From Escherichia phage K1G: a stretch of 43,587 bases of DNA. The position numbers were made by a program, and so were the translations under genes. The DNA is taken from sequence record NC_027993.1. One strand, given 5' to 3'. The notes under the pieces are model-generated. The model was given only the letters and a program-made list of their open reading frames with translations, was not told where the DNA came from and did not search any database. Each line of letters opens with the position of its first letter. The stretch's first letter is position 1. Shown here piece after piece: positions 21,870 to 27,410 of the stretch.

Positions 21870-24824
21870 ATGTCAAGCGGATGTGGTGACGTTTTAAGCC
21901 TGGCGGATTTACAGACCGCCAAGAAGCACCAGATTTTTGAAGCCGAGGTTATCACGGGTAAATCCGGCGGAGTAGCCGGGGGCGCAGATATTGATTACGC
22001 GACAAACCAGGTTACAGGGCAGACCCAGAAGACACTACCTGCCGTGTTGCGTGACGCTGGTTTTAAACTGGCAGATTTTGATTTCACGTCAGGCGGTACA
22101 CTATCCGCTAACGACCGAAACACCGCAGTTTTGTGGCCGTCGTCCTCTGGCGGTGACGGGGATTGGTACTATTGGTTGGGTGCTCTACCAAAAATTATCC
22201 CGGCGTCATCTTCTCCGCAGTCCACCGGTGGCGTGGCAGATGGGGCGTGGCAGCCTGTCGGGTCGGTCATACTGCGGCAGCAAATATCTGATGTAAACGG
22301 TGCAATTCTGTACCCAGATTTACATGTGGCGCGATGGAAGGACGAATACGACCCGCGCGCATGGGGCGCCGTGGGCGACGGCGTAACTGATGATACTCAA
22401 TCTATTTTTAATGTATTAGCAGCTTCCCCCAACAATTGGATTATAGACGGCAGGGGTTTGACTTATAAAGTTTCCCAATTACCTGACATTAGTAAATTTA
22501 AGAATGCTGCATTCGTTTACGAGCGCGTAGCCGGGCAACCGCTTACTTATGTAGCTGATGGCTTCTTTAACGGTTCACTAACTAAGGTGACGGATACCCC
22601 GTTCTACAACGCATGGACGCAGGATAAAACTTTCGTCTACGACCATGTTATTTACGCCCCGTTTATGGCGGGCGAACGACATGGTGTTCAAAACTTACAT
22701 GTAGCTTGGGTTCGCTCTGGAGACGACGGGCAGACTTGGTCAATGCCTGAGTGGTTGACTCCAATCCATGCTGACTATAATGCTAGTGTTTCTACGGACA
22801 GAGTTAACTACCACTGCATGAGCATGGGTACGTGCGGCAACCGATTATATGCAGTTATAGAAACCCGCTACTTATCTAATATGCGGATGAAGAAGGCAGA
22901 ACTTTGGTCACGCCCAATGCCGTATTTTAGACACCCAACCGGCGGAATAACTATTAGTTCTGGCTCCACTACTGCTACCATTGTCATAGAAAATCATGGC
23001 CTAAAAGCAGGAGATGCGGTTAACTTCTCTAATACATCGGCAACTGGCGTATCGGGTAATATGACGGTTTCGTCTATAATTAACCGAAATACGTTCACTG
23101 TTACGCTCTCAAGCCCGGCGAGTTCCACCATAAACAATGCGGGTGTTACCTGGAACTTCGCAACGCGATTCTGGGACAGCCCGTGGGAAATTACCGAATT
23201 GCCTGGGGTAGCATACTCCACTAACGCTGATTTGTGTGTCACGGAGACACATAGTTTTGCGGTTATAGATGATGTTAACTACACTATCGCTGTCGGCTAT
23301 CACAACGGCGATGTGTCCCCTAGGCGTCTCGGTGTCTTGTATTTTAGTAACGTGTATGACAATCCTGGCGTATTCGTTCGTCGCACTGTCGCTCAGGCAT
23401 ACGCTGATAACGCTTCTGAGCCGTGCGTGAAAAGTTATGGTGGTGTGTTATACCTTACCACACGCGGCACATTACCTACTTCCCCTGGCTCTACACTGGC
23501 GATGAGCACCGATTCTGGGCAAAACTGGAGCTACTTGCGATTTCCGAACAATGTACATCACTCCAATCTTCCGTTCGCTAAAGTAGGTGACTATCTCTAC
23601 ATCTTTGGTACAGAACGTGCCTTTGGTGAGTGGGAAGGTGGCGAGCAGGACAGCCGCTATGAAGGTTCGTATCCGAGGACCTTTATGTGCAAAGTTAATG
23701 TGTCGTCCTGGCCTTCATCTTTAGATGATGTTCAGTGGTTTAATATTACCGACCAAATATACCAGGGTCATATCGTTAACTCTGCTGTCGGCGTCGGCTC
23801 GGTCTGTGTTAAAGATGGCTGGTTGTACTATATCTTTGGTGGGGAAGACTTCTTCTCTCCCTGGAGCATAGGGGATAACAGTGCGAAGTTATGGTACAAA
23901 CATGATGGGCATCCGGCTGACTTATATAGCTACCGGATAAAGATTGAAGACCACCCGTACGTATCACGTGATTTCAAATACGGAGCAACTCCTAACCGTA
24001 CAATACCTGTCGCCATGGGGGTAGATGGTGTACGCCATGTAGAAGCACCTTTAACGTTTGACAATGATGTAAGCGTGTACTCCCTGCATGTAACGGGGCT
24101 GGAATACGATGGTACACAACAGTCTGCCGTGCGCGCACGGTTTGATGGTGATTACGGGCTGATTTCAAAAACAGTCCCCACTAAAACCCCATCGGCTCAA
24201 AGACTGATAGTTAGCGGTGGTGATGGCGCATCCAGTTCCGATGGTGCGTTGCTGCAACTGTACGGGGCAAACCATGCAACGCCTAACAGGGCTATTATGT
24301 ATGCGTCAGGAGGCTTCTACTCATACAACAATTTCCTTCCTTACTTAGACTCGCAAGTGTCTTTAGGTTCGGCAGGTAATAGGTGGACTACGGTGTACGC
24401 GACCACCGGTACGATAAACACGTCTGATGGTACACTTAAGACGAACAAAGAGGAAATTGAGGGACAACTCCTTACCGCATGGGAAGATATACATGTAATA
24501 TCTTTTAAGTGGCTTGAAAGCCTAGCAATCAAGGGTGACACTGCAAGGATACACTTCGGTGTGATAGCCCAAGATGTGCGAGACATCTTGGTCAACCATG
24601 GGCTTATGGAGAAAGATTCTACCAGTTGTAAATATGCTTTCTTGTGCTACGACTCAATTGAAGCTGCGTATGATATTGATGAAGATGGCCAGACTGTACA
24701 AGTATCCCCTCCCGGCGGCAGATGGGGAGTTAGGGCGGACCAGATGTTCTTCATAGAGATTGCCTATCAGCGTAAGAAGATGCGCGAGTTCGAGAAGAGG
24801 CTGGCAGCACTAGAAGATAAATAA
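21870..24824 (+). CDS. endosialidase tailspike (endo-N-acetylneuraminidase) with C-terminal intramolecular chaperone domain
   Basis: 984 aa; Asp-box motifs SGDDGQTW and STDSGQNW; long stretches matching recalled K1F-type endosialidase (e.g. GDGVTDDT, NYHCMSMG, HNVHHSNLPFAKVGD, ARIHFGVIAQDVRD); RBS AAAGAGGA. Confidence 0.85.
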   Translation: MSSGCGDVLSLADLQTAKKHQIFEAEVITGKSGGVAGGADIDYATNQVTGQTQKTLPAVLRDAGFKLADFDFTSGGTLSANDRNTAVLWPSSSGGDGDWYYWLGALPKIIPASSSPQSTGGVADGAWQPVGSVILRQQISDVNGAILYPDLHVARWKDEYDPRAWGAVGDGVTDDTQSIFNVLAASPNNWIIDGRGLTYKVSQLPDISKFKNAAFVYERVAGQPLTYVADGFFNGSLTKVTDTPFYNAWTQDKTFVYDHVIYAPFMAGERHGVQNLHVAWVRSGDDGQTWSMPEWLTPIHADYNASVSTDRVNYHCMSMGTCGNRLYAVIETRYLSNMRMKKAELWSRPMPYFRHPTGGITISSGSTTATIVIENHGLKAGDAVNFSNTSATGVSGNMTVSSIINRNTFTVTLSSPASSTINNAGVTWNFATRFWDSPWEITELPGVAYSTNADLCVTETHSFAVIDDVNYTIAVGYHNGDVSPRRLGVLYFSNVYDNPGVFVRRTVAQAYADNASEPCVKSYGGVLYLTTRGTLPTSPGSTLAMSTDSGQNWSYLRFPNNVHHSNLPFAKVGDYLYIFGTERAFGEWEGGEQDSRYEGSYPRTFMCKVNVSSWPSSLDDVQWFNITDQIYQGHIVNSAVGVGSVCVKDGWLYYIFGGEDFFSPWSIGDNSAKLWYKHDGHPADLYSYRIKIEDHPYVSRDFKYGATPNRTIPVAMGVDGVRHVEAPLTFDNDVSVYSLHVTGLEYDGTQQSAVRARFDGDYGLISKTVPTKTPSAQRLIVSGGDGASSSDGALLQLYGANHATPNRAIMYASGGFYSYNNFLPYLDSQVSLGSAGNRWTTVYATTGTINTSDGTLKTNKEEIEGQLLTAWEDIHVISFKWLESLAIKGDTARIHFGVIAQDVRDILVNHGLMEKDSTSCKYAFLCYDSIEAAYDIDEDGQTVQVSPPGGRWGVRADQMFFIEIAYQRKKMREFEKRLAALEDK

Positions 24825-24990: not shown

Positions 24991-25172
24991 TTCTTACCTT
25001 CGCTTTTCTTGAAACTGCGCTTTATATCCGGCAGAGTGTAGCATCGTGAATTTTCGTACTTACCGTCCGAGCTTACCAAAACAAAGCTGTTGCCGTCTTT
25101 TGATATGTACTCGATGGTGAAAGTATTGAATGAATGTACGCTGTATATTTCGTCTCCAACATTAAGTTTCAT
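24987..25172 (-). CDS. hypothetical protein
   Basis: 61-aa ORF, start overlaps helicase stop. Confidence 0.45.
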   Translation of the reverse strand: MKLNVGDEIYSVHSFNTFTIEYISKDGNSFVLVSSDGKYENSRCYTLPDIKRSFKKSEGKK

Positions 25173-26593
25173 TTCTTACCTCGTCTCTTCATATAATTAA
25201 GCAACTCTTCTTGCACAGATTTCTTTTCGTCAGTACGCGCGGCGACAACCTCGTCCAGCGTGTCTTTAGCAACGATGTGGTACAGGAACACCGGCCTCTC
25301 GTGTCCTGCCTGTTTCTGGCGGACCGGGCCTATTCGCTCGACAACCTGCAAATAGTGCTCAAGGTTCCAGCCTTGCGAGATGAATGCCAGATGATGTCCG
25401 CCGTCCTGTAAATTCAAACCATGTCCGGCCGACGCAGGATGCACGCATAAGATTTCGATTTCGCCGCGGTTCCATGCTTCCATCTGCTTATTACCCTTAG
25501 CACCTTTCGCGAATGCCTGCGCCTGCGGGAAACGTTTCAGGATACGCTCCAGTTCGTGCTTGAACTGATAGGCTACCAGTAGCGGAGCACCCTGTAACTC
25601 CTCAACAATTGACTCCAGCGCATCCAGTTTCATGTCGTGCACTTTCTCCCAGTCTTTGGTTGCTTCTCCGTCTGGCCCTGATACATACACAGCACCAGAA
25701 GCAATCTGCAAACACTTTGACGTCTTTGCCGCGGCGTTAGCCGCTTCAACTTCTCCGCTTTCCAGTTCCGCGAATAACTTTTCCTCCATATCGATGTACG
25801 CCTGACGCGCTTTCTTCGGCAGATCTATTTCAACCGGCACTATAATAGGCGCTTCACAACCGAACCACTCAGCGGCGTCAATCGTGAGACTAATGTCCTT
25901 CATCTTCTGGTGGATCTCATTATCTGCACCAGGACGCGCATGATACTCCCGCGCCATCGCCGACTTACCTTTTTGCACAGAGTTGAACCAGCGGTCGGTG
26001 AACGCAGTGTACGATGAACCGAGGCGCTCGCCAGCGTCGATAAACCAGTTCTGGCCCCACAGGTCTTTGAGGCCGTTAGGCGACGGTGTGCCCGTCAGAT
26101 TGATGAAACGCTTAACTTTACCGAACGCCACTTTGCTGAGCGCCTTTGCCCGCTTGCTACCACCAGAACGGCTACGGAATGACTTCAGTTTCGTACTCTC
26201 ATCTGCAACGATAACCGTAAAAGGCCAGTCGTCTTTGCCGTAGTAGTCAATCAGCCACTCGATAACTTCGTAGTTGGTACACACCACGTTAACATCTGAC
26301 TCCAGCGCCGCGATGCGGCGTTTCTCTGAACCTGTCGCATCTACGACACGCAGGCACGGGAATCGCCATTTCTCTTGTTCTGCCGGCCATGTACCTGATG
26401 CAACGCGCAACGGGGCGAGAATTAACACGCGGTCGTCGTCCGTAAGTTGCCCGTTGCGGAACAGGCGGTTTAAAGTCCACAGGACGCTGCCAGTCTTCCC
26501 GGCGCCCATGCTCGCCCAAATATTACAGCGATGGTGTTGCAGCATGAACGAAGTCATGAGCTTCTGGTATTCGCGCCTTTGAAACTTACTCAT
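25169..26593 (-). CDS. SNF2-family DNA helicase/ATPase
   Basis: motif I GAGKTG, motif II DESTKL, LTGTP; 474 aa. Confidence 0.8.
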   Translation of the reverse strand: MSKFQRREYQKLMTSFMLQHHRCNIWASMGAGKTGSVLWTLNRLFRNGQLTDDDRVLILAPLRVASGTWPAEQEKWRFPCLRVVDATGSEKRRIAALESDVNVVCTNYEVIEWLIDYYGKDDWPFTVIVADESTKLKSFRSRSGGSKRAKALSKVAFGKVKRFINLTGTPSPNGLKDLWGQNWFIDAGERLGSSYTAFTDRWFNSVQKGKSAMAREYHARPGADNEIHQKMKDISLTIDAAEWFGCEAPIIVPVEIDLPKKARQAYIDMEEKLFAELESGEVEAANAAAKTSKCLQIASGAVYVSGPDGEATKDWEKVHDMKLDALESIVEELQGAPLLVAYQFKHELERILKRFPQAQAFAKGAKGNKQMEAWNRGEIEILCVHPASAGHGLNLQDGGHHLAFISQGWNLEHYLQVVERIGPVRQKQAGHERPVFLYHIVAKDTLDEVVAARTDEKKSVQEELLNYMKRRGKK

Positions 26594-27410
26594 TTACGGC
26601 CCCCATAAACGCCTTTATAAATTCGGCGGCTACTTGCGGGACGATGGCATTGCCGTAACCGCGCAATCGTCCCACTCTTGCGGGTATCCCATTAGCCAGC
26701 GGGAATGCGCCGGGTTCAACCGGCCGGAACTTTCCATCACGGCATCCGAGCCAGTCAGCATCTGACCAGAAGCCGTGGTGCGGGTTGGTTGACTCGCTTT
26801 CAATCCCTGCTCTGTTGAGTAGTCCAGCCTGTCGAATGTTCTGTCCCTCCCGTCCGTGCGAATCACTGTCTCTCCGCTCCCTCTGAAGTCGTTCGCTGTC
26901 GGTGTAGGCCAGTTCGTGCGCGCCAAAGAAGAGTCGTTCTCTTTTGTGCGGTGCGCCGACGCTACAAGCTGGGAGTACAGCAAACCCGACGGCGTAGTCT
27001 TCTCCTTCCAGGTGAGCTTGTAAATCGCACATCCACGATTTTGCAATTGCTGCCGCAACCTGCTCCCCAAAGATGACTGGAGGGCGGCACTCGCTGATGA
27101 GGTCGAGGAAGACCGGCGCGAGGTGTCTCGGGTCGAACTGTCCGAGTTGCTTTCCCGCCGCGCTAAACGGTTGGCAAGGCGGGCTTCCCGTCCAGAGAGG
27201 CGCATCTTCCGGAACTCCCGCAAGTCTGAGCGCGAGAGGCCAGCCGCCGATACCCGCGAAAAAATGACACTGGGTGAACCCGTCAAGGTCTTCTGGCTTA
27301 ACTTCGGTAATGCTTCTTTCATCTACAACTCCAAAAGGTATGTGACCCTGTTTTATCAACTCACGCAGCCACGCGGCTGCGCCTTTATCCCATTCATTGT
27401 AATAGTTCAT
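26586..27410 (-). CDS. DNA (cytosine-5)-methyltransferase
   Basis: motif I FFAGIGGW, motif [19 protein letters not shown] (ENV-like), C-terminal GYGNAIVP. Confidence 0.8.

Follow-up and report, generated by a model that had tools for sequence, protein, structure and literature searches.

The locus examined here lies on the minus strand of the genome of Escherichia phage K1G (Kagunavirus; sequence record NC_027993.1; the window is the whole stretch that was analysed, 43,587 nucleotides (nt)) and comprises a gene for a C5-cytosine methyltransferase, designated alpha, and a second open reading frame (ORF), designated beta, nested within it. Coding in two frames is solid at this locus, and beta constitutes a conserved protein family of its own that is under purifying selection. 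The two products probably form a two-subunit C5-cytosine methyltransferase made from one DNA stretch that is read in two frames. An earlier note on this DNA, made from the sequence alone, had described alpha as a compact single-protein enzyme, and the nested 230-codon ORF at 26630-27322 (-) went unseen in it; that description is very probably wrong, as the +1-frame polypeptide inside the gene holds the variable, modular part. The two coding features are as follows.

26586..27410, minus strand: alpha, C5-cytosine methyltransferase catalytic subunit, 274 amino acids (aa) (ORF list, PF00145, phrog_363).
26630..27322, minus strand: beta, proposed specificity subunit, 230 codons, nested in the +1 frame of alpha (ORF list, phrog_1008).

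Both ORFs are exact matches to phage K1G entries in GenBank, alpha to ADA82277.1 ('putative C-specific methylase') and beta to ADA82276.1 ('putative Mte8-like protein'), and both are annotated in the GenBank/RefSeq records of K1G, K1H, K1ind1-3 and fTaEco01, where beta is labelled either 'putative Mte8-like protein' or 'DNA methyltransferase'. The nearest phage-collection record for the locus region is K1H (94.8% identity). Searches against PHROGs assigned alpha to phrog_363 (E value 6e-89) and beta to a separate family, phrog_1008 (E value 1.3e-55); beta had no match in Pfam or NCBIfam.

Frame, conservation and start-site tests were carried out on 80 distinct related genes drawn from phages ranging from those of Rhodobacter to T4-like phages. 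The +1 frame was open in 80 of the 80. Stop codons in the +1 frame within alpha numbered a median of 3 per gene, all of them outside beta, compared with a median of 15 in the +2 frame. The longest open +1 stretch covered 89% of gene length, against 43% when synonymous codons were shuffled, and the observed length was reached by 176 of 16,000 shuffles (1.1%); for the +2 frame the corresponding values were 20% observed and 24% in the shuffle null. The K1G gene itself has 230 open +1 codons, whereas its shuffled versions had 90 on average and never more than 169. Across the alignment, beta was conserved above both the +2 control and alpha at alpha residues 123-142 and 229-248, and conserved alpha segments lifted +2-frame scores as well. 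At the centre of the gene the beta frame carries modules of the form G-W-P-T-P-x-A-x-D, and the alpha frame there is unalignable, low-complexity sequence.

Substitution patterns were analysed with an OLGenie-style estimator in 14 Kagunavirus genes. Changes synonymous in alpha and nonsynonymous in beta occurred at a rate of 0.18 within the overlap, against 0.43-0.45 in the tail of alpha beyond beta and in the adjoining helicase gene, and dNN/dNS for beta was 0.60 (0.45-0.81) versus 1.16 for the +2 control. Doubly synonymous sites were rare and gave a rate of 0.74.

The nested arrangement recurs widely. A tblastn search with the C-terminal 147 aa of beta recovered 251 phage records, with identities down to 30-45%. 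In Edwardsiella phage eiAU-183, Klebsiella phage Seifer, Xanthomonas phage PhiXhv-18, Rhodobacter phage RcMrWorf and a T4-like Krischvirus, the match was offset by +1 from an annotated methyltransferase coding sequence (CDS) and both frames read through; the +1 offset was seen in Pseudomonas phages too. A scan of viral contigs added 80 further loci, in which all complete copies had a beta-type ORF in the +1 frame of an ORF with motifs I, IV and X. Broken down by genus, the phage records matched by the N-terminal half of alpha and by beta were near-identical in number, the two giving the same figure in Escherichia (72), Klebsiella (50), Salmonella (23), Rhodobacter (23), Burkholderia (19) and Xanthomonas (13). 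In a profile search of 1.84 billion cluster representatives, 19,553 relatives of beta passed a threshold of E <= 1e-3 and 4,313 passed one of E <= 1e-30, each counted as the representative of a 50%-identity cluster. Relatives were also present as prophages in 68 of 5,426 complete E. coli genomes (for example, NC_017633.1, 2990120-2990984); the prophage copies are annotated by PGAP with a single 'DNA cytosine methyltransferase' CDS, so that the nested ORF goes uncalled.

Translation of beta would begin at one of two internal ATG codons, at 27322 or at 27205, each preceded by a Shine-Dalgarno (SD)-like sequence.

27329..27332, minus strand: SD-like GGAG, 6 nt upstream of the beta ATG at 27320-27322 (sequence).
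27203..27218, minus strand: alternative beta start, with GGAG at 27215-27218, a 9-nt spacer and ATG at 27203-27205, beta Met40 (sequence).

In this portion of the gene, an ATG with an SD sequence was found in the +1 frame of 64 of the 80 relatives, compared with a mean of 19 and a maximum of 27 under the synonymous-shuffle null, and the +2-frame control showed no excess (7 of 80 versus 8.5). This excess argues for internal initiation: the SD sequence and the ATG are kept in the +1 frame through alpha's choice among synonymous codons. Alpha codons 30, 36 and 40 are repeatedly the site of the +1-frame ATG; they lie within the conserved segment VDERSI-x-D, where AAGGAG arises because Arg-Ser is often spelled AGG-AGC. 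An ATG at alpha codon 69, the alternative start, was present in several Kagunavirus relatives but not in all.

Alpha can be divided into a catalytic core, a spacer and a conserved C-terminal block, with the following features.

26913..27410, minus strand: alpha catalytic core, residues 1-166 (pLDDT, M.HhaI alignments).
27243-27263, minus strand: alpha motif I, FFAGIGG (sequence).
27162-27182, minus strand: alpha motif IV, PPCQPFS (sequence).
26769..26912, minus strand: alpha spacer, residues 167-214 (conservation, pLDDT).
26586..26768, minus strand: alpha C-terminal conserved block, residues 215-274 (near-invariant columns, pLDDT).
26637-26654 and onward, minus strand: alpha motif X, GNAIVP (family alignment and helix).

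The earlier note's identification of a 274-aa C5-cytosine methyltransferase with motifs I and IV was correct. FFAGIGG occupies residues 50-56 and the motif IV string residues 77-87, and alpha matched the Pfam family PF00145 (C-5 DNA methylase) with an E value of 4.8e-17 and 62.8 bits (cut-off 22), over residues 71-168 only; the score against TIGR00675 was 40 bits, under its cut-off of 100.65. FFAGIGG, PPCQPFS, GEQV (motif VI) and HKRERLFF (motif VIII) align to M.HhaI and are invariant in the family alignment, and hhalign paired alpha with M.HhaI at 98% probability over motifs I and IV-VIII. The AlphaFold (AF2) model of the core (residues 1-166) had pLDDT values of approximately 85-95 and was superposed by Foldseek on M.HhaI over 168 columns at a root-mean-square deviation of 2.3-2.8 Å (E value ~1e-7); the core matched M.HaeIII as well as M.HhaI.

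Beyond the core, coverage by Pfam and hhalign ceased, being limited to motifs I-VIII. The spacer (residues 167-214) had a mean pairwise BLOSUM score of about 0 or below across the 80 genes, is of low complexity, was modelled with pLDDT of 30-46 and differs in length and sequence among relatives. No conserved recognition domain was thus found in the alpha frame at its expected site by 80-gene conservation, Pfam, hhalign or AlphaFold, which bears out the suggestion in the earlier note that the protein leaves little room for one. The following segment, residues 215-247, is strongly conserved and poorly modelled (pLDDT <50), and the motif X helix at residues 258-273 was modelled with pLDDT of ~95.

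The N-terminus of alpha is also unusual. A motif II/III-like segment, YYNEWD...VDERSI (residues 3-34; 27309-27404), lies N-terminal to motif I, hhalign placed a 35-residue gap in alpha exactly at motifs II-III of M.HhaI, and in the AlphaFold model a strand-helix-strand unit precedes the motif I strand. These features suggest that the motif order of alpha is permuted to II-III-I-IV, an order of which we know of no description for C5 methyltransferases. Alpha does not fit the canonical one-chain order I-II-III-IV...VIII-target-recognition domain-IX-X.

In beta, residues ~1-70, which lie over alpha motifs I-IV, are not conserved, and the remainder consists of three recognizable elements.

26954..27097, minus strand: beta N-block, residues 76-123, helix and long beta-hairpin (pLDDT, conservation).
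26801..26911, minus strand: beta W-P-T-P module, residues 138-174, candidate target-recognition cassette (module variation among relatives).
26663..26782, minus strand: beta C-block, residues 181-220, motif-IX-like element (invariance, hhalign).

The N-block, with the pattern L..SL.SRL...GS.LY.LTWK...TP.G....L.AS, overlaps alpha motifs V-VIII and reached pLDDT of 80-94 both alone and in a model of alpha joined to beta by a linker; a dNN/dNS for beta of 0.58 (0.41-0.83) accompanies it. The C-block (R.TASGQ.LTGS...) is the most invariant part of beta and is followed by a basic tail up to the stop at 26630. Both frames are conserved over ~135 codons, in which the beta N-block is paired with alpha motifs V-VIII and the beta C-block with alpha residues 215-260. 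Between the two blocks the number of W-x-T-P modules varies: among 72 relatives, 20 had one, 39 had two, 10 had three and 3 had four; K1G itself has one. Module subtypes recombine to give at least 35 architectures, with approximate subtype borders, obtained at strict thresholds since loose single-linkage thresholds lump nearly all modules together. Two near-identical Kagunavirus genes (L013 and L014) have, relative to K1G at ~26800-26815, a 120-nt in-frame insertion that provides beta with a second W-P-T-P module (NWPTPRSSDGEKNVRTLEG...) and alpha with spacer residues only, and a further relative (L015) has yet another cassette at that site.

The C-block contains the spacing L-x-P-(5)-x-[LV]-M-G-Y-P, which is that of motif IX in M.HhaI (KLHPRECARVMGYPDSY), and the sole segment aligned by hhalign between beta and M.HhaI was residues 273-291, motif IX. 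At 26682-26726 (-), a motif-IX-like pattern is read from the same nucleotides in both frames, one base out of register, with Gly and Pro occurring in both because of GGG and CCC runs. Modelling with AlphaFold gave no compact fold for beta alone (148 sequences; pTM 0.32); in the alpha-linker-beta model (23 paired sequences), confidence was high for the core and motif X helix of alpha and for the N-block of beta.

Several divergent copies of the locus were observed. In Pseudomonas phage PMG1 (L004, 1000-2100), the alpha frame is broken by a frameshift in the VDERSI segment, which is the region of the beta start, and the beta ORF is intact and is the sole one annotated; the break may reflect an error in sequencing, a pseudogene or an alpha that is split. 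A tailed-phage genome labelled 'Dunaliella viridis virus SI2' (L009, 1404-1808) contains a deletion relic, in which the alpha N-terminus (YYNENDPFAAAWLR...) is joined to the C-terminal block with all catalytic motifs gone; both frames are open and beta retains a W-P-T-P module and the C-block. In Edwardsiella phage eiAU-183 (L005, 1263-2685; representative P0266), the beta frame runs stop-free into a downstream Dam gene (N6-adenine methyltransferase, PF05869) to give a beta-Dam reading frame of 474-497 aa, and in representative P0212 it continues into a DUF2800/PD-(D/E)XK nuclease. Among the top 150 beta representatives there was no in-frame fusion of alpha to beta, and the only read-through was into Dam or the DUF2800 nuclease. 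In Paenibacillus larvae phages (for example, NC_048718.1, 32706-32957), a match confined to alpha motifs IV-VIII covers two CDS annotated as 'DNA methyltransferase'; the pair may represent a different type of split C5 methyltransferase.

As alpha has no conserved recognition region and the variable modules lie in the beta frame, beta is proposed as the specificity subunit, and it probably carries the specificity of the enzyme. In the two-subunit enzyme that we consider probable, ribosomes would start beta internally on the alpha mRNA, at the ATG at 27322 or that at 27205, and alpha and beta made from the one mRNA would assemble. Alpha would bind S-adenosylmethionine and flip and methylate cytosine, and beta would supply the recognition part in the form of one to four exchangeable W-x-T-P modules, together with the motif-IX-like element, which normally packs beside motif X, and the basic tail. 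Nesting would ensure that the catalytic and specificity subunits are inherited and expressed together, and a cassette swapped into the middle of the gene would alter the modules of beta, whereas in alpha nothing but a tolerant spacer would change. Phage DNA is presumably methylated by the holoenzyme as it replicates and thereby shielded from host restriction, and the number of target sequences may rise with the number of modules. The proposal in the earlier note of self-methylation against restriction is plausible by comparison with known phage orphan methyltransferases.

Certain results weigh against this interpretation. Translation of beta and its binding to alpha are deduced from sequence. 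The match between beta and motif IX of M.HhaI was not significant (E value 0.35), the beta profile found nothing among solved structures at E <= 10, and the PF00145 match was extended neither in a chimera built from alpha (I-VIII), beta (module, IX) and alpha (X) nor with isolated C-terminal pieces. In the alpha-linker-beta model the W-P-T-P module and C-block of beta had pLDDT <60, and alpha residues 215-247 were likewise low. The dN/dS of ~0.6 for beta is just moderately under its control, and a +1 control in the helicase gave 0.86 (0.62-1.26). Finally, alpha has a motif-IX-like pattern of its own at R229-P243 (R-x-V-x-P...L..G-x-P, with motif IX spacing), so that alpha alone might be a complete enzyme that lacks a recognition domain.

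Beta may be translated and yet be no methyltransferase subunit, being instead an independent DNA-binding, regulatory or anti-defence protein overprinted on the gene. The lack of a Pfam family or solved structure for its profile, the absence of a compact domain in the AlphaFold model, the non-significant motif IX similarity, the extension of its frame into a Dam or nuclease gene in some phages and the survival of beta beside a frame-broken alpha in PMG1 would all suit such a protein. We nevertheless regard this as unlikely, given that every locus examined has beta only inside alpha-type genes, that alpha has no conserved region at the recognition-domain site, that beta is locally most similar to M.HhaI precisely at motif IX, with canonical spacing, and that M.EcoHK31I (see below) provides an experimentally proven precedent. 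A somewhat less likely account is that alpha alone is complete and active, with short or relaxed specificity and residues 229-243 acting as motif IX, and that beta is an optional modulator or retargeter. Alpha does contain motifs I, IV, VI, VIII and X in addition to its motif-IX-like pattern, in which Val231, Glu232 and Leu238 are near-invariant though the beta codons allow alternatives, which places the alpha frame under selection there. However, every characterised C5 enzyme depends on a recognition domain placed between motifs VIII and IX (PMC3404938), the spacer of alpha is unconserved, and the strict co-conservation of beta is hard to explain if beta is dispensable.

Two further explanations concern how the frames are read. 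Programmed frameshifting could join them so that one chain carries motifs I-VIII from alpha, the modules and motif IX from beta and motif X from alpha again, and the order of these elements along the DNA does mimic a canonical single chain, with motif IX ending ~8 codons before motif X. Such a path would require two shifts, no slippery heptamer was seen at either junction, the conserved SD sequence and ATG point to separate initiation, and the simultaneous conservation of both frames over ~135 codons cannot be explained by a single path through them; with both frames constrained and the SD-ATG pair conserved, the single chain was rejected as very improbable. The +1 ORF could also be a non-coding by-product of the amino-acid and codon composition of alpha, since that composition alone gives fairly long open +1 stretches (the null mean of 43%) and conserved alpha segments lift the apparent conservation of both other frames. 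Against this, all 80 genes are open, at 89% of length, the W-x-T-P modules keep their conservation in places where alpha has none, SD-ATG pairs are in excess, synonymous change is suppressed and similarity in the beta frame persists at identities as low as 32-49% across host phyla; the by-product explanation is effectively refuted by the synonymous-codon shuffles and +2-frame controls.

The two-subunit interpretation is best read by comparison with known enzymes. Two natural two-subunit C5 methyltransferases have been described, M.AquI and M.EcoHK31I (PMC2836561, PMC3404938). In M.EcoHK31I (E. coli HK31, YGGCCR; Lee, Kam & Shaw 1995), beta is encoded wholly within alpha in another frame; alpha carries motifs I-VIII together with X, plus the recognition domain, beta carries motif IX, and both are needed for activity; internal methionines can serve as starts for beta, whose N-terminal part can be dispensed with (PMC2836561, PMC3404938). 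The K1G pair appears to resemble this enzyme on a comparison by description: in both, beta is nested on the same strand in another frame and motif X is on alpha. The two differ in that the recognition domain of M.EcoHK31I is on alpha, whereas alpha of K1G has an unconserved, disordered spacer and the variable modules are on beta. The beta of M.EcoHK31I is small and carries motif IX only, whereas that of the K1G family has 230 codons, and up to >390, with an N-block and 1-4 modules. Moreover, alpha of K1G has its own IX-like pattern, and M.EcoHK31I belongs to a restriction-modification pair, whereas the K1G enzyme is an orphan carried by a phage.

M.AquI (Agmenellum quadruplicatum, CYCGRG; Karreman & de Waard 1990) has motifs I-VIII on alpha and the rest of the variable region with motifs IX and X on beta (PMC3404938). 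It is likewise a natural two-subunit C5 methyltransferase, split in the variable region, but its genes are consecutive and motif X is on beta, whereas in K1G beta is fully nested and motif X (GNAIVP) is on alpha. The monomeric enzymes M.HhaI, M.HaeIII and Dcm share with K1G the core fold and motifs I, IV, VI and VIII, and differ from it in that K1G has no in-frame recognition domain, places motifs II/III before motif I and encodes a nested second polypeptide. The C5 methyltransferases of Bacillus phages SPR, phi3T and rho11s carry, between motifs VIII and IX, tandem target-recognition modules, one for each target, that are exchanged between phages. Each of those enzymes is one polypeptide read in a single frame, and its modules are not known to be of the W-x-T-P type; we hypothesize that members of the K1G family may be multispecific.

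A broader reading, which we put forward tentatively and hold to be somewhat short of probable, is that two subunits are obligatory throughout a very large family of C5 methyltransferases from phages and prophages, with a specificity subunit overprinted over 200-390 codons in the +1 frame and shuffled W-x-T-P cassettes that would each add or change a target. Such a family would comprise ~20,000 clusters of beta at 50% identity and would span alphaproteobacterial, enterobacterial and T4-like phages. If true, it would represent a natural modular, possibly multispecific system for writing 5-methylcytosine (5mC) that has been overlooked by alpha-only annotation and cloning, and, of the deeply conserved same-strand gene overlaps known from bacterial viruses, its own would rank with the longest.

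GenBank has carried both ORFs since 2010, and knowledge of nested two-subunit C5 methyltransferases goes back to 1995; in the library searched, no paper was found that interprets the phage ORF pair, connects it with M.EcoHK31I or remarks on how widespread and modular it is. The arrangement has so far been shown experimentally for one bacterial enzyme only, M.EcoHK31I, and cloning of alpha alone may yield an inactive or mis-specified enzyme. A nested overlap of at least 690 nt that is conserved from Rhodobacter to Escherichia phages, with both products recognizable and selected, is a rare natural test case and shows how one sequence can serve two proteins. That near-identical phages differ in their beta cassettes suggests that the methylation protecting them against host restriction systems is rapidly retargeted. 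M.EcoHK31I was once adapted for engineered targeted 5mC (PMC2836561), for which a catalytic subunit with a separate modular specificity subunit would be attractive.

The methyltransferase gene is followed on the same strand by a helicase gene.

25169..26593, minus strand: SNF2-type helicase, 474 aa (ORF list, PF00176).

The helicase matched PF00176 (SNF2-related; E value 1.6e-13), in agreement with the earlier call, and Helicase_C weakly. As had also been noted, its gene overlaps that of the methyltransferase: the helicase ATG overlaps the alpha stop, and the shared 8 nt are ATGAGTAA, 26586-26593. The further claim that the two are 'coupled' holds for this overlap, which is ordinary translational coupling typical of phage operon packing, and does not extend to a special link, as only 21 of 87 related loci have an SNF2 helicase within 2.5 kb of the methyltransferase, often directly downstream; its proximity is a recurrent replication-module neighbourhood and no dependency. 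ATGA-type 4-nt start/stop overlaps were found both between an upstream 63-aa ORF and alpha (27407-27410) and between the helicase and a downstream 61-aa ORF (25169-25172), so that the whole block looks translationally coupled. A 984-aa tailspike is encoded on the plus strand at 21870-24824, corresponding in the K1H record to an endosialidase ('tailspike 63D sialidase'), and its gene converges on the minus-strand replication operon that contains the helicase and the methyltransferase.

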